Origin: Eubacteriales bacterium
GTDB taxonomy: Bacteria > Bacillota > Clostridia > Oscillospirales > CAG-272
NCBI GenBank assembly: GCA_045653105.1
Contig: JAZOLL010000047.1
Coordinates: forward strand, 698-64,697
Length of the DNA stretch: 64,000 nucleotides
Direction of reading: 5' to 3'
Position 1 is the first letter of the stretch, and every line of letters starts with the position of its first letter. Positions 40,752 to 56,220 of this stretch are shown here, piece after piece. The position numbers were made by a program, and so were the translations under genes. A model generated the notes under the pieces. The model did not search any database and was not told the DNA's origin. It saw only the letters and a program-made list of their open reading frames with translations.

Positions 40752-43700
40752 TCAGAAAAATGAAAGCTGTTCAGCTTCCTCTTGTTGCGGAGCTTCTTTC
40801 TTCGCCGCTTTTTTGGGCTCTTCCTTCTTTTGAGTAGTAGCGCTGCCCAAAGCTTCCCCAAATCCGCCAAATGTGAGTTGATCGGTCTCATTGAGATTTT
40901 TAAGCGCCCCGTTTGTACGAAGCACCTCAACAACACTCTTTGTGAGCTTTGCTCTGGTCTGTAGGTCCTCTATTGAGAAAAAGGGCTCTTCATTTCTTGC
41001 CACGACGATATTTGCCGCCGCGTTCTCTCCAACACCGGGTAGCGCGGAGAACGGCATTCTTATAGCCTTGTCGCCCTCAGGCACGAAAGCGTAAGAATCC
41101 GACTTTTCAATATCTACGGGCAGGAATTTGATTCCTCTTGCCATACATTCGTTAGCAAGCTGGAACGTAGGAATAGATGCCTGCTCCTTGGGTGACGCTT
41201 CCTTTCCACGCTTTTCTATATCCTTTATAGTAGCCATAACAGCCGAGCGTCCTCTCGCAACAAGTGTCGCGTCAAAGCCGCCGGGAGCTACCGTAAACAT
41301 AGCCGAGTAGAATGCTATCGGGATATGTATCTTATACCACGCAAGTCGGATAGCAGACATAACGTATGCCGCCGCGTGAGCCTTCGGGAACATGTATTTT
41401 ATCTTTTTACAAGACGTGAGATACCATTCGGGAACGTTGTGCTCTCGCATAGACGCCTCCCATTCGGGAAGAAGACCTTTTCCCTTACGGACACTTTCCA
41501 TTATCTTAAACGCGAGCGAGTTATCCATGCCGTATCTTATAAGGTCAAGCATGATACCGTCTCTCGTTCCGATAACCTGTGAAATGTCACAAATTCCGTC
41601 CTTTATAAGCTCCTGCGCGTTGCCGAGCCACACGTCTGTTCCGTGGGTAAGTCCGGATATCTGCAACAGGTCCGCAAAGTTTTTCGGTTTTGCCTCAATA
41701 AGCACCTGCTGAAGGAAACGTGTGCCGAACTCGGGAAGTCCGAACGTACCTATCTGCGAGTCGATATCCTCAGGCTTTACTCCGAGTGATTTTGTAGACT
41801 GAAAGAGATCGTAAACCGACTTATCGTTCATCTTTACGTCCATAACACTGGTGTTTGAGAACTTTTCAAGCCATTTATACTTGGTCGGAATATCGTGTCC
41901 GAGCTCATCTAGTTTGAGTATCGTATCGTGAAGATAAGAGAACGCAAAGTGCGTTGTTACTATATCCGAATGCGGGTCGTCCGCAGGGTGCTGAACGGGG
42001 GTAAAGTCGTATATCTCGTATTCACGGGGTACAACTATGATACCGCCCGGATGCTGACCCGTAGTACGCTTTACTCCTACACAGTTCTGAATAAGTCGCT
42101 CCGTCTCTGCTTTTCCTATACTAAACCCGCGCTCTTCAAAGTACTTTGCTACAAATCCAAAGGCGGTCTTGTCCGCAAGCGTACCGAGCGTTCCAGCTCT
42201 GAACACGTTTTCCGCTCCGAAAAGCTCCTCGGTGTACTTATGCACTCTTCCCTGCACATCGCCCGAGAAGTTAAGGTCGATATCGGGAGACTTATCACCC
42301 TTGAATCCAAGGAAGGTCTCAAAGGGGATATCGTGTCCGTCGGCATTCATAAGAGTACCGCAGACGGGGCAATTTTTATCCTCAAGGTCAAAGCCCGAGC
42401 CGACACTTCCGTCTGTGATAAACTCGTTGTGCTGACACTTGGGACAGTAGTAGTGCGGTGGCAGAGGGTTAACCTCGGAAATACCCGCCATCGTAGCAAC
42501 GAATGAGGATCCGACAGATCCGCGAGAGCCTACGAGATAGCCTTGCTTTTCGCTGTATTCAACAAGCTTTTGCGCGATCATGTAAAGCACCGCAAAGCCG
42601 TTTTGTATGATAGACGTGAGCTCTCTGTCAAGTCGCTTGTGTACTATCTCGGGAAGCGGATCTCCGTACATAGACTTTGCCCTTGTCCAACACTTTTCCT
42701 GAAGTTCCTCCTCCGCGCCCTCCATTTTAGGCGTATAAGAGCCCTTGGGGATAGGACGGACCTCCTCTATCATATCGTTTATAAGGTTTGTATTTGTAAC
42801 TACGACCTCATACGCCTTTTCCTCACCGAGATATGCGAACTCCTCAAGCATCTCCTCGGTAGTTCTGAAGTAGATGTGAGTGTCTCTGTCCGCATCCTTA
42901 AACTTAGATGCGATGATTATCTTTCTGTATATCTCGTCCTCTTTATTGAGGAAGTGCGCGTCGCAGGTAGCCACTACGGGCTTATTGTATTTTTCACCGA
43001 GCGCGACTATGCGTCGGTTAAGGTCGCGAAGCGCCTCATCGTCTGCGACCTTTCTCTCTGCAACCAAGAATCTGTTATTCGAGAGAGGCTGTATCTCAAG
43101 ATAATCGTAAAAGTTTACTATCTTCTCAATCTCAGAGTCGGGCTTGCCCTCAAGAATAGCGGTGAAAAGCTCTCCTGCCTCGCAGGCAGAACCGATTATA
43201 AGGCCCTCTCTGTGCTTTTCAAGCTCGGTCTTGGGGATTCTCGGGGTCTTTCTGAAATAAGAAATATAGCTTGAGGATATAAGCTTATAAAGGTTTTTAA
43301 GTCCCTCTTTATTCTTGACGAGAATTATCTGGTGATAAGGACGAAGGATAAGCGGGTTTGTCTTTGTACTCATCTCATTTTGGAGATCCTCAAAGCTCTT
43401 TATATCCATCTCGCTTATCTGTTCGAGCATCTTGAAGAATATGCGCGCGAGCACCTCTGCATCATCACACGCTCTATGATGGTGGAAACCACCGAGGTCA
43501 TAATGCTTTACAAGCACATCAAGCTTGTGCGACTTGAGGTCGGCATTCATATATCTGGAAAGTGCCAGCGTGTCAAGATAAGGAGAATCAAATGGGATAC
43601 CCTGTGCCTTTGCCGCGGCACGTATAAATCCAACGTCGAAATCAGCATTATGCGCTATGAGAAGTCTATCACCCACGAACTCAAGAAATTCGGGAAGCAC

Positions 43701-45254
43701 TTCCTCTATAGTGCGCTCTCCCTTTACCATTTCGTCGGTTATCGAAGTGAGTGCGACGATCTCTTCGGGGATAGGCTCAAGCGGGTCTATAAATGTGTTA
43801 TACGTATCGAGCACCTTTCCCTGCTTTATCTTTACAGCGCCTATCTCGATTATCTTACAGTTGGCGACGGAAAGACCTGTGGTCTCGATATCAAATACAA
43901 CGAACTCGTCGTCAAATCCACCCTCGTATTTGCCGTTTATCGCAGTAGCGGTATCGTTTACGAAATACGCTTCAAGTCCGTAGATGACCTTCATTCCGCA
44001 TTTTTCTGCCGCTATCATTGCTTCGGGATAACCCTGAACGTTCGCGTGGTCTGTGATAGCTACCGCAGGATGTCCCCACGCCTTAGCCGTTTTTACCGCT
44101 ACATCGGGCGGGATCACCGAGTCCATCGCGGACATATTGGTGTGAAGATGAAGCTCCACACGTTTCTTCGGGGCATTGTCCTGTCTGCCTATTTTTGAAA
44201 CGACTGCTATATCGGTAAAGCTGAGGAAAAGCTCGTCGTCATTTCTTTCGTTTTTTGTATAGCCGTGTATCGCAATAACGCTGCCCTTTGATGCCGCGCT
44301 CTTGCACTCCTTTGCTTCCTCGGGAGTAAGAGAATATCTCTTTGCGTATATCGAGGAGTTGCCGTCGAATATTCCTATTACAACGTTGAACTTATCCCCC
44401 GCTCTGTTAGGCTCGGATGAGAACGAGAATACCTCACCGACGAATACGATGTTCTTAACCGCCTTGTTTATGGTTGCTATCGGAACGGGTCTTATATCGA
44501 ACTCGTTACCAAAAGCAAAATTCGGTGACGTGAGATCAAAGGTATAAGCGCCTATCTTTATCTTTCCATCCGCAACAGCAGATTCCTTGAGGTCGAAATC
44601 ATATACGGATGTCATTCTGGGAAGCTTCTCTCCTTCTTCCTCTGCCTCTTTCTGCGGAGCTCTGTTAAAGCCCTCGGCAAGATGCGCCTCATACTCGCGC
44701 TCTGCCGCAGCGAGCTGTCTGTCTATCTCTTCCATTCTGAGCCTTGCCGCCTCGCTCTGCTCTGTGGATACATGATCAGAATAAAGCAGTTCAACACTGA
44801 TTTTTATAGAAAATTCGCTCGCTATGATGTTTTCTATCACAGAGGGAGTCTTTGCGTCCTTGAGCAGTCCTACTCCCTCTTCTCTGAAAGGAATTGTAAT
44901 GCTAAGCTTGTCTCCCTTGAGCTCATATGTATATTCCGAGAAAAATCCCTTTGCCACTGTTCCTACATTTTCTGTCTCTTTGAGTATCTCGGGTACGTAA
45001 TCGTATGTAAAGAGCTCGCTCGGATACTTGGGGAGTATCTTGAAAAATCTGAGCGCATAGACCTCTGCTACGCGACGCTCTATGTCATAAAGTAATTCTT
45101 TATCAACGAGGCGAGAAAACTCCGCTCTCACCTCAAGTATTCTCTTTTCTTTATCTACTCTCGAGAGGACATTCGAGCCCATATCGAGTATCTCGGCATG
45201 CTCTGCCGACGGTGTGTATTTTGAAAGTAGTTCTCTGAGTGTCTTTCCTGCCAC
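40752..45254 (-). CDS. polC: DNA polymerase III alpha subunit, PolC type
   Basis: 1500 aa. GTG start after GGAGAGGG. PHP domain, inserted DEDD exonuclease (FVVFDIETTGLS), polymerase core, and C-terminal beta-clamp motif QLSFF. Confidence 0.95.
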   Translation of the reverse strand: MAGKTLRELLSKYTPSAEHAEILDMGSNVLSRVDKEKRILEVRAEFSRLVDKELLYDIERRVAEVYALRFFKILPKYPSELFTYDYVPEILKETENVGTVAKGFFSEYTYELKGDKLSITIPFREEGVGLLKDAKTPSVIENIIASEFSIKISVELLYSDHVSTEQSEAARLRMEEIDRQLAAAEREYEAHLAEGFNRAPQKEAEEEGEKLPRMTSVYDFDLKESAVADGKIKIGAYTFDLTSPNFAFGNEFDIRPVPIATINKAVKNIVFVGEVFSFSSEPNRAGDKFNVVIGIFDGNSSIYAKRYSLTPEEAKECKSAASKGSVIAIHGYTKNERNDDELFLSFTDIAVVSKIGRQDNAPKKRVELHLHTNMSAMDSVIPPDVAVKTAKAWGHPAVAITDHANVQGYPEAMIAAEKCGMKVIYGLEAYFVNDTATAINGKYEGGFDDEFVVFDIETTGLSVANCKIIEIGAVKIKQGKVLDTYNTFIDPLEPIPEEIVALTSITDEMVKGERTIEEVLPEFLEFVGDRLLIAHNADFDVGFIRAAAKAQGIPFDSPYLDTLALSRYMNADLKSHKLDVLVKHYDLGGFHHHRACDDAEVLARIFFKMLEQISEMDIKSFEDLQNEMSTKTNPLILRPYHQIILVKNKEGLKNLYKLISSSYISYFRKTPRIPKTELEKHREGLIIGSACEAGELFTAILEGKPDSEIEKIVNFYDYLEIQPLSNNRFLVAERKVADDEALRDLNRRIVALGEKYNKPVVATCDAHFLNKEDEIYRKIIIASKFKDADRDTHIYFRTTEEMLEEFAYLGEEKAYEVVVTNTNLINDMIEEVRPIPKGSYTPKMEGAEEELQEKCWTRAKSMYGDPLPEIVHKRLDRELTSIIQNGFAVLYMIAQKLVEYSEKQGYLVGSRGSVGSSFVATMAGISEVNPLPPHYYCPKCQHNEFITDGSVGSGFDLEDKNCPVCGTLMNADGHDIPFETFLGFKGDKSPDIDLNFSGDVQGRVHKYTEELFGAENVFRAGTLGTLADKTAFGFVAKYFEERGFSIGKAETERLIQNCVGVKRTTGQHPGGIIVVPREYEIYDFTPVQHPADDPHSDIVTTHFAFSYLHDTILKLDELGHDIPTKYKWLEKFSNTSVMDVKMNDKSVYDLFQSTKSLGVKPEDIDSQIGTFGLPEFGTRFLQQVLIEAKPKNFADLLQISGLTHGTDVWLGNAQELIKDGICDISQVIGTRDGIMLDLIRYGMDNSLAFKIMESVRKGKGLLPEWEASMREHNVPEWYLTSCKKIKYMFPKAHAAAYVMSAIRLAWYKIHIPIAFYSAMFTVAPGGFDATLVARGRSAVMATIKDIEKRGKEASPKEQASIPTFQLANECMARGIKFLPVDIEKSDSYAFVPEGDKAIRMPFSALPGVGENAAANIVVARNEEPFFSIEDLQTRAKLTKSVVEVLRTNGALKNLNETDQLTFGGFGEALGSATTQKKEEPKKAAKKEAPQQEEAEQLSFF

Positions 45255-49452: not shown

Positions 49453-50166
49453 TCAAACGCCTCCAAATCGGCGCTTTCTGTTCATAAAATTGTCTATTGC
49501 GGCATCGACGTCTGCCTCGGAAAAATCAGGCCAAAGAACGTCTGTAAAATAAAACTCCGCATAAGCGGACTGCCAAAGCAAAAAGTTTGATATTCTCATA
49601 TCTCCGCCCGTTCTTATAACCAGATCGAGCTCGGGAGAATCCTTTGTGTAAAGCGAGCGGCTGATATCCGCCTCGCTCACCTTAGTCGCTCCCTCGGATA
49701 TGAGCTTGTTGACCGCCATAGCGATCTCGTCTCTTGAACCGTAATTGATAGCCAAGTTGACGATTGTCTTGTTTTTTGCGGAGCTCTCTTCTATTTCCAG
49801 CATCTTGGTGCGCATTTTTTCGTCAAATGCCGACTTGTCGCCAAGGAATATAAATCTGAGATCGTACTCAGACATTTTTTCACGGCACTCATCGAGGTAC
49901 TTGTCAAGAAGCTTCATGATAGAATCGACCTCCCTTTGAGGTCTTTTCCAGTTTTCTGTAGAAAAGACGTAAAATGTGGCAGCCTCAAGACCGAGCTTAC
50001 CGCAGTACTTCATTATCTTTCTGAAGGTGTCTGCACCAAAGCGGTGTCCGTATTCTCTGGGCATTCCGCGTTTTTTTGCCCATCTGCCGTTTCCGTCCAT
50101 AATAAAACCGATATGTCGTGGCTTAGCTGCAGCATCGACACTCGACACGATATCCTTTTTAGACAT
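49453..50166 (-). CDS. uppS: isoprenyl transferase (undecaprenyl diphosphate synthase)
   Basis: HIGFIMDGNGRWAKKRG, FSTENWKRP, RTGGDMRISNFLLWQ. Confidence 0.9.
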   Translation of the reverse strand: MSKKDIVSSVDAAAKPRHIGFIMDGNGRWAKKRGMPREYGHRFGADTFRKIMKYCGKLGLEAATFYVFSTENWKRPQREVDSIMKLLDKYLDECREKMSEYDLRFIFLGDKSAFDEKMRTKMLEIEESSAKNKTIVNLAINYGSRDEIAMAVNKLISEGATKVSEADISRSLYTKDSPELDLVIRTGGDMRISNFLLWQSAYAEFYFTDVLWPDFSEADVDAAIDNFMNRKRRFGGV

Positions 50167-50224
50167 CGATATCCCTCCTAAAACAGATCCGGGCGGTCAT
50201 CGGCCGCCCGGTCAGCAAAAAGCC

Positions 50225-50779
50225 TTATATCTGCATGATTTCTTTCTCTTTTTTCGCAGTGATAGCGTCTATTTCTTTGATAAACTTATCTGTGAGATCC
50301 TGAACGCTCTTTTCAGATGCCTTCTGCTCGTCCTCTGTCATCTCACCGTCCTTCTTCAACTTCTTGCAAAGATCGTTAGCGTCTCTTCTGATGTTTCTGA
50401 TAGCAACCTTGCCATCCTCAGCCATCTTCTGAACCTGCTTAACAAGCTCTCTTCTGCGCTCCTCTGTAGGCTGGGGGAAAACGAGTCTTATCATCTTACC
50501 GTCATTTGTAGGAGTGATTCCAAGATCGGATGCAAGAATCGCCTTTTCCATAGCCTTGAGTGTTGTTCCGTCAAAAGGAGTAATTGTAACGGTCTTACTG
50601 TCTGCTACTCTTACGTCTGCCATAGTCATAAGAGGTGTGGGGCTTCCCCAATATTCAAAATTGATCTTAGAAAGGACTGCAGTGCTCGCATGTCCTGCTC
50701 TGATCGTACCGATGTTCTGCTCGTAAGCGACTATCGCTTTACCCATTCTCTCTTCAAAGTCCTTAGTGTTAAGCTTCAT
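50225..50779 (-). CDS. frr: ribosome recycling factor
   Basis: 184 aa; IRAGHASTAVL, PTEERRRELVK, IRNIRRDAND. Confidence 0.9.
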   Translation of the reverse strand: MKLNTKDFEERMGKAIVAYEQNIGTIRAGHASTAVLSKINFEYWGSPTPLMTMADVRVADSKTVTITPFDGTTLKAMEKAILASDLGITPTNDGKMIRLVFPQPTEERRRELVKQVQKMAEDGKVAIRNIRRDANDLCKKLKKDGEMTEDEQKASEKSVQDLTDKFIKEIDAITAKKEKEIMQI

Positions 50780-50824
50780 AACTCTTCTCCTTGTAATGTA
50801 AATGTATTTGATATTTTTAATTTC

Positions 50825-51535
50825 TTATCTGTGCATTTCAGTTCCGATGCGCTCACCGTTTATAACACGGTATATATTCATTGGATCTTTGAGTTCAAAC
50901 GCATATGCCTTTATGTCATTGTCCATACAGAATGTCGCCGCCGTGAGGTCCAGTGCCCCAAGCTCGTCCTTTATGATTTGATGATATGTTATCTCATCAT
51001 ACTTGACTGCTGTAGGATCCTTGCGAGGATCTGCATTATATATTCCGTCTATGTTCTTTGCCATAAGAACAACATCAGCGCCGATCTCCGCCGCTCTGAG
51101 AACTGCCGCTGTATCGGTAGAGAAATAAGGTGCTCCAAGTCCGCAACCGAAGATAACTATCTTTCCAGCGCGAAGCGCCTCGTCCGCGCCGCGTGTGGTG
51201 TAAGGATCGGCAAATTTATTCATATCGACAGCCGTCATAACAACAGTGTCAAGTCCGCACTGAAGGAATGTATCCTGAAGAGCGAGCGCGTTGATAGTGG
51301 TTGCGAGCATGCCCATACTGTCAGCTCTTACGCGATCCATACCGCCGCCCTGCTTACCTCTCCAGATATTACCCGCACCGACGATTATTCCAACCTCAAC
51401 TCCGTCAGCTACGCAAAGCTTTAAAACATTTGCTATTTTAGTGATAAAATCAAAATCGAGGATATCATCTCCACCCGCTGCGAGTGCCTCGCCCGAGAGC
51501 TTGAGAAGAACTCTTTTGTACTTAATTTCAGACAT
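50825..51535 (-). CDS. pyrH: UMP kinase
   Basis: Start MSEIKYKRVLLKLSGEAL after GGAG; VGAGNIWRG. Confidence 0.9.
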   Translation of the reverse strand: MSEIKYKRVLLKLSGEALAAGGDDILDFDFITKIANVLKLCVADGVEVGIIVGAGNIWRGKQGGGMDRVRADSMGMLATTINALALQDTFLQCGLDTVVMTAVDMNKFADPYTTRGADEALRAGKIVIFGCGLGAPYFSTDTAAVLRAAEIGADVVLMAKNIDGIYNADPRKDPTAVKYDEITYHQIIKDELGALDLTAATFCMDNDIKAYAFELKDPMNIYRVINGERIGTEMHR

Positions 51536-51682
51536 AATATACTCCAAAAAAGTTTATTATACACAAGCGAGATCATCTGCCTGTATATGTTTCCATTTTA
51601 CTACATTTATTGCCTTTTGTAAACAGTTATTTGAATATTTTATTGTAAATATTTTTATTATAACATTATAAGTAATTAACAA

Positions 51683-51712
51683 TTGACAAAACGGAAAAAT
51701 GTGTGTTATAAT
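51683..51712 (+). promoter_or_regulatory. near-consensus promoter of the flavodiiron gene (TTGACA-18-TATAAT, TG-extended)
   Basis: TTGACA at 51683-51688, TGTTATAAT at 51704-51712. Confidence 0.55.
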
Positions 51713-51758: not shown

Positions 51759-53549
51759 ATGACCATTACAAAAGATATAAAATACGTGGGTGTCAACGAC
51801 AAAAAAGTTGACCTTTTTGAAGGACAGTATCTCGTTCCGAACGGAATATCCTACAACTCCTACGTCATACTTGACGAAAAGATAGCGGTTATGGACACCG
51901 TTGACGCGGCATTCACTCACGAGTGGCTCGACAACATTCAGAACCTTCTTAACGGCAAGTCTCCCGACTACCTGGTAGTTCACCATATGGAGCCCGATCA
52001 CTCCGCGAATATAGCAAACTTTGCAAAGGCATATCCTAATGCAAAAATAGTTGCTTCCGCAAAGGCGTTTACTATGATGAACAACTTTTTCGGAGAGGAC
52101 TTTTCAGATCGCCGTGTAGTCGTCGGTGAGGGCAGCACACTCACACTTGGCAAGCACACACTCACATTCGTGACAGCGCCCATGGTGCACTGGCCTGAGG
52201 TCGTAGTATCCTACGACAGCAAGGACAAGGTACTCTTCTCTGCCGACGGATTCGGTAAATTCGGCACACCCGATACAAACGAGCCTTGGGATGATGAATC
52301 CCGCAGATACTTTATCGGTATCGTTGGAAAATACGGCACGCAGGTACAGGCTCTGCTAAAAAAAGCGGCGACACTCGACATCGAATATATCTGCCCTCTC
52401 CACGGTCCTGTTCTTCACGAAAATCTTGGACACTATATAAACCTCTACAACACTTGGTCGAGCTATCAGCCCGAGGACGAAGGCATTGTTATCGCCTACA
52501 CATCCGTTTACGGAAACACCAAGAAGGCTGTCTCTCTCCTTGCTGAAAAGCTAAAGGCAAACGGAGCTCCCACTGTCGTGGTTTACGACCTTGCAAGATG
52601 CGACATGTCAAAGGCTGTGAGTGATGCTTTCAGATACAGCAAGCTCGTTTTGGCTACCACCACCTACAATGCCGACATATTCCCCTTTATGAGAGAGTTT
52701 ATAAACCATCTCACAGAGAGAAACTTCTCGAATCGCACCGTAGCTCTCGTTGAAAACGGAAGCTGGGCACCTATGGCGGCAAAGGTGATGACAGAGCTCC
52801 TATCAAAGTGTAAGAATCTCACCTTCACAGACACATCTGTAAAGATCCTTTCTGCGCTGAACGCGGACTCCTCAAAGCAGCTTGACGATATGGCAAATGA
52901 GCTTTGCCGCGAGTATCTCGCGCAGAGAGATGACACTGCTGACAAGAACGACCTCTCCGCTCTCTTTAACATCGGATACGGTCTCTACGTCATAACCTCA
53001 AACGACGGCAAAAAGGACAACGGACTTATCGTAAACACGGTAACTCAGGTCACAAATACACCTAACCGCCTTGCTGTAACTATAAACAAGACCAACTATT
53101 CTCACCACGTTATAAAGCAGTCGGGTATTATGAATATTAACTGTCTCTCTACCGACGCGCCCTTTGACGTGTTCAAGCATTTTGGATTCCAGAGTGGAAG
53201 AAACATCAACAAGTTTGCCGAGTGCACACCTCTTCGCTCTGACAACGGACTTGTATTCCTTCCCCGTTATATCAACTCCTTTATGTCTCTCAAGGTTGAG
53301 CAGTACGTTGATCTCGACACTCACGGAATGTTTATCTGCTCGATAACAGAGGCAAGAGTGCTGACGGACAAGGAAACTATGACGTACACCTATTATCAGA
53401 ACAACGTAAAACCGAAACCCGAGGCAAAGGGTAAAAAAGGTTATGTTTGCAAGATCTGCGGATACGTTTACGAGGGCGAAGAGCTCCCCGAGGACTTCAT
53501 CTGTCCGCTTTGCAAGCACGGAGCATCTGACTTTGAGGAATTAAAGTAA
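51759..53549 (+). CDS. multidomain flavodiiron protein: metallo-beta-lactamase-like diiron domain, flavodoxin, flavin-reductase-like domain, rubredoxin
   Basis: Start MTITKDIKYVG after AAAGGAG. Diiron HHMEPDH. Flavodoxin IAYTSVYGNTKK. Flavin reductase-like YVITSNDGKKDNGLIVNTV. Rubredoxin CKICGYVY...CPLCKH. Confidence 0.8.
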   Translation: MTITKDIKYVGVNDKKVDLFEGQYLVPNGISYNSYVILDEKIAVMDTVDAAFTHEWLDNIQNLLNGKSPDYLVVHHMEPDHSANIANFAKAYPNAKIVASAKAFTMMNNFFGEDFSDRRVVVGEGSTLTLGKHTLTFVTAPMVHWPEVVVSYDSKDKVLFSADGFGKFGTPDTNEPWDDESRRYFIGIVGKYGTQVQALLKKAATLDIEYICPLHGPVLHENLGHYINLYNTWSSYQPEDEGIVIAYTSVYGNTKKAVSLLAEKLKANGAPTVVVYDLARCDMSKAVSDAFRYSKLVLATTTYNADIFPFMREFINHLTERNFSNRTVALVENGSWAPMAAKVMTELLSKCKNLTFTDTSVKILSALNADSSKQLDDMANELCREYLAQRDDTADKNDLSALFNIGYGLYVITSNDGKKDNGLIVNTVTQVTNTPNRLAVTINKTNYSHHVIKQSGIMNINCLSTDAPFDVFKHFGFQSGRNINKFAECTPLRSDNGLVFLPRYINSFMSLKVEQYVDLDTHGMFICSITEARVLTDKETMTYTYYQNNVKPKPEAKGKKGYVCKICGYVYEGEELPEDFICPLCKHGASDFEELK

Positions 53550-53607
53550 AAATATCACAAACAAAACTACCAAGCGTTTTGATCTTTCTGAAAGGAGCAA
53601 GTTTCAA

Positions 53608-56187
53608 ATGAAAAAAAAGCTGACTATCGGCATACTTGCTCACGTTGACGCGGGAAAAACGACCCTCTCTGAGGCGTTGCTCTACCAAGCGGGAAGGATC
53701 AGAACGCTTGGTCGCGTTGACCACAAAAATACTTATCTTGACACAAACTCACTTGAGCGCGAGCGCGGTATCACCATATTCTCAAAGCAGGCGAGATTCT
53801 CTGCAAAGGATACGGACATTATCTTACTCGACACCCCCGGACACGTTGATTTTTCCCCAGAGACCGAGAGAACACTCTCACTTCTTGACTATGCGATACT
53901 CGTTATAAGTGGCTCTGACGGAGTTCAAAATCACACGAGAACGCTTTGGCAGTTGCTTGATTTTTACCGAGTACCTACCTTTGTTTTCATCAACAAGACC
54001 GACATTGCGATAAAGCTCAAGGAAGAACTTGAGGCCGAGGTAAAAAGCGAGCTCTCGGACAAGTGCGCAGCTTTTTTGGAACTTCAGACAAAATCCGAGC
54101 TTGACGAACGCTTGGCGGCAGTAAACGAGGATTTTCTTGATGCTTTTGCGTCCGACACTCCGATAGAAGACTGGGAGATTGCCGAGCTTGTCGCAAGGCG
54201 CGAGCTCTTTCCTTGCTTTTTCGGCTCTGCTCTGCGACTTGAGGGTATAGACTTTATGCTTGACGCTATAGACAGATACACCCTCTCCCCCGTATATCCC
54301 ACCGAGCCCTTTGGCGCGAAGATATACAAGATCGCAAAGGCGGGCTCTACAAGGCTTACTTATATGAAGCTGACATCGGGCTCGCTCTGTGTGAGAGACG
54401 AGATATCCTATCTCTCCTCTGATGACAAAATATACCGTGAAAAGGTATCACAGATACGCCTTTATTCGGGCGACAAATTCGAACAGACCGACAAGGTCAC
54501 GGCAGGTGAGATATGCGCTGTCGTAGGTCTCTCTGCGACATACGTGGGACAAGGTCTTGAAAATGAGGAAAACGCGAGTGCACCGCTTCTTGTACCTGTA
54601 CTTACCTATACGGTAAAGTTCCCCGCCACCGCAGATCCCAGACTCTGCTATCCAAAGCTACGCGAGCTTGAGGAGGAAGAGCCGTCTTTCCACGTTCGTT
54701 GGAATAACGAGGCATCCTCTGTTGAGGTCAGCCTTATGGGCGACGTGCAGACAGATCTTTTAAAACATATGATATCCGAGCGCTTCGGCATGGAGGTGTC
54801 CTTTGAGAACGGAAGCATTCTCTACAAGGAAAAAGCATCCAAACGGGCGCTTGGCATAGGACATTTTGAGCCGCTTCGCCACTATGCCGAAGTGCAGCTT
54901 GTAATTGAGCCGCAACCGAGAGGAACGGGGCTTATATTCGATTCCGACGTGCCAGAGGACGAGCTTGCTGTAAACTGGCAAAGGCTTGTGCTATCTCACC
55001 TTTACGAAAAGGATCATCGTGGCACTCTTATCGGTGCACCGCTGACAGACACCAAGATAACGCTTGTTGCGGGTCGCGCACATATCAAGCACACAGAGGG
55101 TGGCGACTTCAGAGAGGCGACGCTTCGCGCGGTTCGTCACGGACTTATGCGCGCAGAGTGCACACTCCTTGAGCCATACTATAAATTTGCACTTAACATT
55201 CCAAGCTTTGCCGTTGGCAGAGCGCTCTCTGATCTTGAATGCAGAAGCGCGGAGTTTGAGATAACTCATTCCGATGAAAAAAGCGCAGTCATAGTTGGAA
55301 AAGCGCCAGTGGCGACAATCTGGGATTACTCTCGCGAAGTGATATCATTCACACATGGAGAAGGCACGCTCGCTTGTAGCTTTGACGGATATTATCCCTG
55401 CCACAACCAAGACGAGATCATAGCAGCTTCGGCCTATGATCCTGAAGCAGATCTTGAAAATCCCCCGCACTCGGTATTCTGCGCTCACGGAGCGGGATTT
55501 GTTGTGCGTTGGAGTGAGGTCGAGGACTACAAGCACATATCCTACGAGCCGAAAAAGATGTCATCGGATTCAACTATTCCCTCTGTTTCAAGGCTCAGCA
55601 AAAAATATAACGTATCCGCCGAGGAGCTTGAAGCCTTGATGCTCCGTGAATTCGGTCCGATATCGAGGAGAGTATACAGCGAGCCTAAGCGAAACGCGGC
55701 GGCATCCGAGACAAAGCAGAAAAAGATAAAGCCACAAGCATCTAGAAAAAATTCTGTTATAATAGACGGATACAACCTCATATACGCTTGGGATGAGCTC
55801 AAAGAACTAGCGGACTTTTCGCTTGAAAAGGCGAGAGAGACGCTTATGGATATCCTTGCAAACTACGTCGCTTACACGAAATGTGAAGTGATCCTTGTAT
55901 TTGACGCATACCTTGTAAAGCAAAATGGTGCGGATTTTGAAAAAGACGGTTTCCGCGTTGTATTTACAAAAGAGGACCAGACTGCAGACGCATTTATTGA
56001 GCGACTTATGTTTGAGCTTGGTCCAAACTACGACATAAAGGTTGTAACAGGAGACAGACTACTGCAGTTCTCCGCCGTTCGTTCGGGAATACTCAGAATG
56101 ACCGCAAACGAATTTGTCGATGAGCTTATAAGCGTTGGCAACGAGATAACAAGCTTTATAAGGCGTTTAGCTGAAGAAAAGATATAA
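53608..56187 (+). CDS. fusion protein: TetM/EF-G-type translational GTPase plus C-terminal YacP/Rae1-type NYN ribonuclease domain
   Basis: GTPase motifs G1 AHVDAGKT, G2 RGITI, G3 DTPGH, G4 NKTD, then EF-G domain II-V-like sequence to about aa 640. After a linker, VIIDGYNLIYAW, LVFDAYLVK, VFTKEDQTADAFIERL and VVTGDRLLQ. Confidence 0.8.
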   Translation: MKKKLTIGILAHVDAGKTTLSEALLYQAGRIRTLGRVDHKNTYLDTNSLERERGITIFSKQARFSAKDTDIILLDTPGHVDFSPETERTLSLLDYAILVISGSDGVQNHTRTLWQLLDFYRVPTFVFINKTDIAIKLKEELEAEVKSELSDKCAAFLELQTKSELDERLAAVNEDFLDAFASDTPIEDWEIAELVARRELFPCFFGSALRLEGIDFMLDAIDRYTLSPVYPTEPFGAKIYKIAKAGSTRLTYMKLTSGSLCVRDEISYLSSDDKIYREKVSQIRLYSGDKFEQTDKVTAGEICAVVGLSATYVGQGLENEENASAPLLVPVLTYTVKFPATADPRLCYPKLRELEEEEPSFHVRWNNEASSVEVSLMGDVQTDLLKHMISERFGMEVSFENGSILYKEKASKRALGIGHFEPLRHYAEVQLVIEPQPRGTGLIFDSDVPEDELAVNWQRLVLSHLYEKDHRGTLIGAPLTDTKITLVAGRAHIKHTEGGDFREATLRAVRHGLMRAECTLLEPYYKFALNIPSFAVGRALSDLECRSAEFEITHSDEKSAVIVGKAPVATIWDYSREVISFTHGEGTLACSFDGYYPCHNQDEIIAASAYDPEADLENPPHSVFCAHGAGFVVRWSEVEDYKHISYEPKKMSSDSTIPSVSRLSKKYNVSAEELEALMLREFGPISRRVYSEPKRNAAASETKQKKIKPQASRKNSVIIDGYNLIYAWDELKELADFSLEKARETLMDILANYVAYTKCEVILVFDAYLVKQNGADFEKDGFRVVFTKEDQTADAFIERLMFELGPNYDIKVVTGDRLLQFSAVRSGILRMTANEFVDELISVGNEITSFIRRLAEEKI

Positions 56188-56220
56188 AAAACAACGGCAA
56201 CTTTCGTTGCCGTTGTTTTT
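56186..56220. terminator. bidirectional intrinsic terminator
   Basis: AAAAACAACGGCAAC-TTTC-GTTGCCGTTGTTTTT. Confidence 0.8.

Follow-up and report, generated by a model that had tools for sequence, protein, structure and literature searches.

What does a protein do that carries, on one polypeptide, a translational GTPase resembling elongation factor G (EF-G) and the tetracycline-protection (Tet) proteins, followed by an endoribonuclease domain of the Rae1/YacP type? The question is raised by a gene at 53608..56187 (+ strand) in a stretch of 64,000 nucleotides from contig JAZOLL010000047.1 of a Eubacteriales bacterium (assembly GCA_045653105.1); this whole stretch is called the window here, coordinates are window coordinates throughout, and residue numbers are those of the 859-residue fusion protein. 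An EF-G/Tet-like translational GTPase and a Rae1/YacP NYN nuclease are genuinely joined in one polypeptide. Its architecture is already published, and the window protein adds a new, functionally uncharacterised member. The function that we propose, with about an even chance of being right, is that of a ribosome-docked, tethered Rae1-type messenger RNA (mRNA) nuclease for translation surveillance, chromosomal and of a housekeeping type.

The fusion gene starts at an ATG, comprises 859 codons plus a stop and, on direct translation, contains no internal stop; the single uninterrupted open reading frame (ORF) reported by an earlier reading made from the letters of the DNA without database searches (the sequence-only reading) is therefore real. 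A Shine-Dalgarno sequence, GAAAGGAG (53590..53597, + strand), read directly from the sequence, lies 10 nt before the ATG. All the motifs quoted in that reading are present (AHVDAGKT, RGITI, DTPGH, NKTD, LLEPYYKFALNIP, VIIDGYNLIYAW, VILVFDAYLVK, VVFTKEDQTADAFIERL and KVVTGDRLLQ), as is the Lys/Ser/Pro-rich linker between GTPase and nuclease, and the Pfam comparison that it had suggested matches both the translational-GTPase domains and NYN_YacP. ORFs of ~860 residues with 66–83% identity are recovered in independent ENA, Logan, NCBI and JGI assemblies. A frameshift or misassembly artefact is ruled out by these independent assemblies together with more than 140 divergent clusters that retain the single ORF; resequencing might have split the frame into separate GTPase and nuclease genes, and the orthologues keep it whole.

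An AlphaFold2 model built from a 143-sequence alignment (mean predicted local distance difference test score, pLDDT, 89.9) shows residues 1–600 as a complete five-domain EF-G-type body, encoded like all parts of the protein on the + strand. The G domain (residues 1–225, 53608..54282; Pfam GTP_EFTU 4–225, 1.3e-49) carries G1 AHVDAGKT (11–18), G2 RGITI (53–57), G3 DTPGH (75–79, its H being the catalytic His79), G4 NKTD (129–132) and a G5 GSAL, and has a short Tet-like G' insert. Domain II (residues 226–325, 54283..54582; EF-G_D2 244–314 and GTP_EFTU_D2, sub-threshold) is modelled as an all-beta barrel with pLDDT >90. It is followed by domain III (residues 326–402, 54583..54813; EFG_III 330–400, 1.3e-05, and the AlphaFold2 model), domain IV (residues 403–518, 54814..55161; EFG_IV 404–516, 1.3e-14) and domain V (residues 519–600, 55162..55407; EFG_C 520–601, 4.2e-16), which opens with LLEPYYKFALNIP at residues 520–532. 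In Pfam, EFG_III, EF-G_D2 and GTP_EFTU_D2 fall slightly under their gathering scores, and EFG_IV and EFG_C exceed theirs. In a Foldseek search, the modelled body matches ribosome-bound TetM at 7e-44 and, more strongly, EF-G chains at E ~1e-50. With G1–G5, including the catalytic His of DxxGH, and the five-domain body, the protein has what marks a member of the EF2/EF-G family. Domain IV, which in EF-G and TetM is inserted into the 30S A site, bears two family-specific motifs, G418-H-F-E-P-L-R-H-Y-A-E-V and A-G-R-A-H492-x-K494-H495-T496-E-G-G-D500-F-R.

Residues 715–859 (55750..56184, + strand) constitute an NYN_YacP (Rae1-type) endoribonuclease domain. The Pfam model PF05991 matches residues 717–852 at E 2e-40, scoring 139 bits where 24.6 is the gathering score, and the crystal chains of Bacillus subtilis YacP/Rae1 (5MQ8/5MQ9) align at E 1e-22 with 41.5% identity over ~118–143 residues, so that the likeness to YacP/Rae1 that the sequence-only reading had noted holds. 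By definition, an active NYN_YacP nuclease has D-GYN following strand 1 and no fewer than four Asp in its active site (Matelska 2017, PMC5499597). Both are present: the motif residues are D720-G-Y-N, D766 (VFDAY), T787, D794 (QTAD) and D816 (TGD), and D720, D766, D794 and D816 correspond to Rae1 D7, D53, D81 and D104, as counted on the 5MQ8/5MQ9 alignment. The acidic active-site residues expected of an NYN domain are accordingly in place, all four aspartates being invariant in 143 sequences. The protein is not a single-domain one of ~170 residues encoded in a cysS-mrnC-rlmB-yacP neighbourhood, its nuclease being attached to a GTPase of 645 residues. Fused NYN domains share 41–45% identity with B. 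subtilis Rae1, and their closeness to Rae1 equals that between fused domains from different branches. No second NYN_YacP copy was found in the window or in 90 fetched loci, a result that covers the loci and not whole genomes.

Body and nuclease are separated by two further regions. Residues 601–645 (55408..55542, + strand) are predicted to fold into a C-terminal extension of helix, beta-hairpin and helix (pLDDT 93–97) with the motif Y-D-P-x-x-D-x-x-N-x-x-x-S-V-F-C-x-H-G-A-G-x-x-V-x-W-x-E-V; Y610, D615, S622, F624, G628, W635 and H643 are at least 90% conserved in the 143 sequences. The extension is family-specific and is also kept in unfused relatives, whose ends fall just behind it. Residues 646–714 (55543..55749, + strand) form a disordered, charged tether with pLDDT <50 at 651–671 and 686–706. 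Across the family, the stretch from H643 to the first NYN strand measures 61–142 residues (median 85) and is rich in E/K/R/S, and the mean pairwise identity of the tether is 16%. Sequence searches of Pfam and the PDB matched neither the extension nor the tether, even at E<=10. A short helix motif within the tether, EELEALMLREFG (residues 672–683, 55621..55656, + strand), matches a family consensus, (D/E)-E-L-x-x-I-(F/M)-x-R-(T/E)-(Y/F)-G, with E673 found in 126, I677 in 129, R680 in 89 and G683 in 98 of the 143 sequences; a helix at 671–682 is modelled at low confidence. This motif could be a docking or autoinhibitory element.

Comparison of the 143 relatives, which share 38–84% identity with the window protein, provides evidence that both catalytic centres are maintained. 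In the GTPase, D14, G16, K17, T56, D75–G78, K130 and D132 are invariant and His79 is at least 90% conserved; in the nuclease, D720, Y722, N723, D766, T787, D794 and D816 are invariant. Judged from this alignment, the catalytic residues of both halves are under purifying selection, in agreement with the conservation that had been expected of them. Mean pairwise identity is 56% for domain IV, 47% for the G domain, 46% for the C-terminal extension and 42% for NYN, followed by domain II (39%), domain V (37%) and domain III (34%). That domain IV is the best-conserved region of the family, above even the G domain, is unexpected, and argues that contact with the decoding centre is central to function. 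Divergence in the GTPase half tracks that in the NYN half (Mantel r 0.38, 0/999 permutations).

The fusion is widespread. An exhaustive HMMER search over 1.84 billion cluster representatives returned, among its best 150 matches, almost exclusively proteins of 830–1000 residues that align end-to-end at 39–51% identity, and the fusion occurs in at least 140 clusters at 50% identity. A scan of genome collections gave 144 relatives; the counts below refer to the 80 loci kept (61–68% identity), all of which come from gut or rumen metagenome-assembled genomes of Clostridia, Oscillospiraceae and Eubacteriales. The nearest relatives of the window protein have 83% identity, and a profile search extends the family to Lachnospiraceae, among them Blautia faecicola, represented by the genome of an isolate. 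The gene is an ordinary chromosomal one with a wide vertical distribution in Clostridia. In Ruminococcus albus 7, Clostridium thermocellum, Eubacterium rectale and Desulfitobacterium hafniense, canonical EF-G coexists with the fusion, which is the sole 'Tet'-class factor there; since EF-G is present as well, the fusion protein is an additional factor rather than the translocase. Two complete genes encode unfused GTPase relatives of 651 and 656 residues (P0259 and P0254; complete ORFs at L081 6001–7956 and L082 6001–7971), which stop just past the C-terminal extension; their surroundings at these loci yielded neither an NYN gene nor a remnant of one. A third unfused match of ~650 residues (P0253) proved to be a truncation on a contig fragment, as its 90% cluster includes an 869-residue member. 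In a crude neighbor-joining tree, simple, rooted on TetM/TetO and biased in its sampling to fused proteins, the two unfused relatives nest inside the fused family, which suggests secondary loss of the nuclease.

The kind of GTPase to which the nuclease is attached bears on what the protein may do. The best NCBIfam model is tet_protect (NF012153), with 398.8 bits against a cut-off of 775; the TetM/W model scores 270.6 against 1100, the EF-G equivalog models give 254–278 bits against cut-offs of 583–659, and four other family members, fused and unfused, reach 335–423 bits with tet_protect. TetO/TetM align with the GTPase in one full-length stretch (232–239 bits, 29–30% identity), whereas the EF-G alignment breaks in two. 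For domain IV alone the order is reversed, with 33 bits for EF-G versus 28/25 bits for TetO/TetM, and His492 occupies the position of the EF-G tip histidine. At the tip of domain IV, the loop III sequence G-L-Y-Y-S-P-V-S of TetM is replaced, gap-free and at the same length, by G-R-A-H-I-K-H-T, in which the proline is absent; Y-Y-S508-P509-V510 of TetM aligns to A-H-I-K-H, and K494-H495-T496 of the replacement are at least 90% conserved in the 143 sequences. The TetM C-terminal helix region has no alignable counterpart in the fusion protein. Because the model scores lie below their cut-offs, identity is 29–30%, loop III is different and domain IV alone is slightly nearer to EF-G, the fusion GTPase is, on sequence grounds, a distinct subfamily of the EF2 family, nearest to the Tet proteins yet outside them. 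The nearly invariant tip H-x-K-H-T-E-G-G-D is unlike the loops of both TetM and bacterial EF-G. Its H-x-x-G-G pattern may echo the loop that bears diphthamide in EF2 of archaea and eukaryotes. Loop III of domain IV is, functionally, the most important element of TetM; its tip (L505-Y-Y-S508-P509-V510) displaces the drug, the residue Pro509 overlapping with the tetracycline site (PMC7456112, PMC4750697). The window protein neither reaches the curated cut-off for tetracycline protection proteins nor possesses their loop III tip, and the sequence-only reading was right to call tetracycline resistance an improbable function, given the 398.8 of 775 bits and the missing Ser-Pro-Val.

Fusions of this kind have been described twice. 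Atkinson 2015 (BMC Genomics, Additional file 8; PMC4342817) listed ten clostridial examples, from Ruminococcus, Eubacterium, Butyrivibrio, Ruminiclostridium, Cellulosilyticum, Lachnoclostridium, C. thermocellum and Desulfitobacterium, assigned them to the Tet subfamily, considered that a novel mechanism of resistance might be involved and proposed a test of RNase activity; Matelska et al. 2017 (Nucleic Acids Research; PMC5499597) noted 'TetM-NYN_YacP fusion proteins' in some Clostridia. The window protein belongs to this published set, having the same domain order and end-to-end homology: against YP_004106010 of R. albus 7 it shows 46% identity and 64% positives with 6 gaps over 861 columns, and the motifs of the C-terminal extension and tether are present in all ten Atkinson proteins. 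The sequence-only reading knew of no characterised protein with this architecture, which stands insofar as the family is uncharacterised, although it is not unreported.

Rae1 itself has been shown by experiment to be an mRNA endonuclease that depends on translation and works where ribosomes stall or collide (PMC12407103, PMC13622287). It is now reported to cut at the tail of such ribosomes, ~12 nt upstream of the A site, and cleavage in the A site, which the sequence-only reading had taken as established, is outdated, having been withdrawn by the laboratory behind the original proposal. A September 2026 preprint describes Rae1-dependent tagging by transfer-messenger RNA (tmRNA) after ribosome collisions, placing Rae1 upstream of tmRNA rescue, and notes that a structure of ribosome-bound Rae1 is lacking, binding being transient (PMC13622287). 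The fusion is mentioned in neither PMC12407103 nor PMC13622287.

These findings are compatible with a mechanism in which the EF-G/Tet-like body would dock at the ribosomal factor-binding site, with domain IV in or beside the 30S A site, and would thereby bring the covalently tethered NYN endoribonuclease to the mRNA of the same ribosome. The cut would fall outside the A site, at the ribosome boundary or in the mRNA between ribosomes that have stalled or collided, as for free Rae1. GTP binding and hydrolysis would set docking and release, and hence the time window for cleavage, and the truncated message would then be handled by tmRNA and RNases. Ribosome binding by the fusion, an mRNA rather than ribosomal RNA (rRNA) substrate, the position of cleavage, the coupling to GTP and the link to tmRNA are elements that we infer. 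In EF-G/TetM-type factors the C-terminus returns toward domain IV and the shoulder side of the 30S subunit, where the mRNA entry channel also sits. Speculatively, a coil of median 85 residues might reach the mouth of the entry channel more readily than the distant exit site, and in a disome the mRNA at that mouth might be the very stretch that holds the leading ribosome's −12 position. Surveillance or quality control of translation, already put forward in the sequence-only reading, is the most reasonable function.

Several observations count against this surveillance role. B. subtilis Rae1 is active without such a GTPase, so tethering is not required, and the existence of unfused relatives implies a separate role for the GTPase. 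The YacP family was first tied to rRNA and tRNA processing by gene neighbourhood (PMC5499597), and the fusion might conceivably act on rRNA. No conserved rescue-pathway neighbour (tmRNA, SmpB, RqcH or MutS2) occurs among the loci, full-text literature searches found no functional study of any fusion member, and AlphaFold2 places the NYN domain relative to the body without confidence (predicted template modelling score 0.70, tether pLDDT <50).

Other explanations divide according to where the nuclease would act and whether the two halves work together. The proposal of the sequence-only reading, that the GTPase brings NYN to the decoding centre, where the A-site codon would be cut in a GTP-controlled step, draws on the architecture: domain IV of the one partner extends to the A site, and the other partner is a nuclease that was once docked there in silico (PMC12407103). 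It is nonetheless very improbable: domain IV would fill the A site, which has no room for both it and a nuclease, and a disordered tether of 61–142 residues fits action at a distance, not rigid insertion. No more credible is a ribosomal protection protein against tetracycline or another antibiotic, with the nuclease as an accessory, even though tet_protect is the top NCBIfam model, some databases name relatives 'TetM/TetW/TetO/TetS family', and Atkinson 2015 favoured a Tet-subfamily placement with a possible novel resistance mechanism. The scores of the window protein and of the four other members, the low identity to TetO/TetM, the replacement of the S508-P509-V510 tip by the invariant-type H-x-K-H-T and the unalignable C-terminal helix region all speak against it, as does the broad distribution in housekeeping contexts, in which no antibiotic-resistance genes were seen near fusion genes at the loci examined.

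An enzyme directed at rRNA, docking on ribosomes or pre-ribosomes so that NYN cuts rRNA for maturation or quality control, or for ribosome inactivation or degradation, is a minority possibility. It has a parallel in the nuclease steps of eukaryotic ribosome maturation that are checked by a GTPase (eIF5B/Nob1). Moreover, in ~300 Firmicute genomes the genes for mini-RNase III and an rRNA methyltransferase share an operon with stand-alone yacP (PMC5499597). However, Rae1, the sole experimentally studied member, cuts mRNA in a way that depends on translation, the fused NYN domains are as near to Rae1 as their own branches are to each other, and ribosome-biogenesis neighbours are not conserved in the loci examined. 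Finally, GTPase and Rae1 domain may have been fused for co-expression while serving different targets, mechanistically uncoupled. The long, disordered and poorly conserved tether would permit this, and the unfused GTPases nested in the family indicate that the body can stand alone; yet the fusion has been kept at 38–51% identity over more than 140 clusters, the tether holds a conserved motif, and the ribosome is the independently known target of both partners, which makes uncoupled partners distinctly unlikely. A more specific form of the surveillance proposal, in which the GTPase would sense an EF-G-type state (rotated, translocation-blocked) of the trailing collided ribosome and the tethered Rae1 would cut at its entry-channel mouth, within the stretch 12 nt upstream of the leading stalled ribosome's A site in which free Rae1 cuts, is in this detail rather unlikely.

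In the window, the fusion gene is surrounded by a flavodiiron-type protein (FDP) gene, an inorganic pyrophosphatase gene (ppa) and transporters. The FDP gene (51759–53549, + strand) encodes metallo-beta-lactamase/ODP, flavodoxin, flavin reductase and rubredoxin-like domains. Its mechanically assigned ORF start at 51699 is probably wrong and the true start the ATG at 51759 (MTITKD...), because a promoter lies inside the 51699 extension and homologues start at the later position. That promoter, a sigma-70-type TTGACA-18-TATAAT with TG (51683..51712, + strand) predicted from a 12/12 consensus match, is the sole strong promoter-like site upstream of the fusion gene, and no terminator-like site was found between the FDP and fusion genes (53549–53608). 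Local co-transcription of the two from 51683..51712 is plausible, and uninformative on function. A conserved operon is ruled out, as an FDP gene lies within 10 kb in 11 of the 80 related loci, mostly downstream or on the opposite strand; the hint of oxidative stress that the sequence-only reading had drawn from this gene reflects the local layout only, the adjacency being absent from most of the 80 loci. Unbiased neighbour clustering revealed no family that recurs in more than 6 of the 80. Downstream, a bidirectional intrinsic terminator (56187..56220) with a 15-bp stem and T-runs on both sides begins at the last base of the fusion stop codon and is common to the convergent inorganic pyrophosphatase gene; its hairpin is flanked by an A-run and a T-run. 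On the other side, ~2 kb upstream of the fusion gene, lies a pyrH-frr-uppS cluster that includes ribosome recycling factor (49453–51547, − strand), and beyond it PolC (40752–45254, − strand); this vicinity looks like ordinary Firmicute core-genome context, not a functional link.

More distant members have dus, MoxR/DUF58, DUF2284 and small alarmone synthetase genes as neighbours. In B. faecicola, dus (tRNA dihydrouridine synthase; L083–L085 12754–13737) overlaps the fusion stop by 4 nt, and in a Lachnospiraceae-like lineage a small alarmone synthetase gene (RelA_SpoT, 255 residues; L089 7683–8450, L090 2944–3711) follows the fusion gene after 7 nt. Both are translation- or stress-related neighbours, and each arrangement is confined to one lineage. 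An anti-phage defence system was also considered and rejected, as neither the full protein nor its C-terminal 259 residues matched any PADLOC-DB family.

The fusion family was flagged for experiment a decade ago, and it could make the route by which Rae1 reaches stalled or collided ribosomes directly testable. A Rae1 domain covalently tied to a factor-site GTPase provides an experimental handle in a large natural family, and by Rosetta-stone logic the unfused GTPase relatives might recruit free Rae1 in trans. Should the proposed function be confirmed, GTP-gated mRNA cleavage would join the repertoire of the EF-G family, and Clostridia, including gut Lachnospiraceae and Oscillospiraceae (Blautia, Agathobacter rectalis, Ruminococcus), would possess a rescue or no-go-decay route. 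If the GTPase does sense collisions, it would be the first translational GTPase with RNA cleavage as its output, timed by GTP, and it would offer a lockable handle (the GTP analogue GDPNP, guanosine 5'-imidotriphosphate, or a His79 mutant) for the elusive Rae1–ribosome complex. Annotations of relatives P0067, P0276 and P0295 are inconsistent, varying between 'NYN domain-containing protein', 'translation factor GTPase family protein', 'GTP-binding protein' and the longer 'TetM/TetW/TetO/TetS family tetracycline resistance ribosomal protection protein'. Tetracycline-resistance labels are unjustified at about half the curated score, and they could inflate resistance-gene counts in gut metagenomes.

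Among known systems, the published clostridial Tet-NYN_YacP fusions are the closest, sharing domain order, length and motifs with the window protein and showing no structural difference from it; the window protein comes from a more distant, uncultured gut or rumen lineage. Those reports were sequence observations that predated knowledge of Rae1 function (2015) or were independent of the Rae1 work (2017), and the ten species then listed compare with more than 140 clusters at 50% identity in public data now. B. subtilis Rae1/YacP has in common with the fusion the NYN_YacP fold family, D-GYN, the four Asp and, presumably, translation-linked cleavage. It is, however, a free 170-residue protein encoded near rlmB/sigH that binds the ribosome transiently (PMC13622287, PMC5499597), whereas the fused domain sits C-terminally on an 859-residue GTPase behind a ~70-residue tether, in an unrelated gene context. 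The closest characterised relatives of the GTPase body, TetM/TetO (3J9Y, 3J25, 4V6V), have a similar short G' insert and five-domain body of ~600 residues; unlike them, the fusion has a loop III without Y-S-P-V, a different C-terminal extension and the added NYN domain. EF-G (Thermus thermophilus 4V5F, Staphylococcus aureus 2XEX) shares the five-domain fold and the tip-position histidine, while the fusion has a shorter G' subdomain and scores below the EF-G model cut-offs. As functional analogues we propose SmrB of Escherichia coli and Cue2 of yeast, nucleases that act on stalled or collided ribosomes and leave truncated mRNA for rescue (PMC13622287). They differ from the fusion in having an SMR rather than an NYN fold and in being recruited by a disome interface or ubiquitin, where the clostridial proteins would rely on a covalently attached GTPase.

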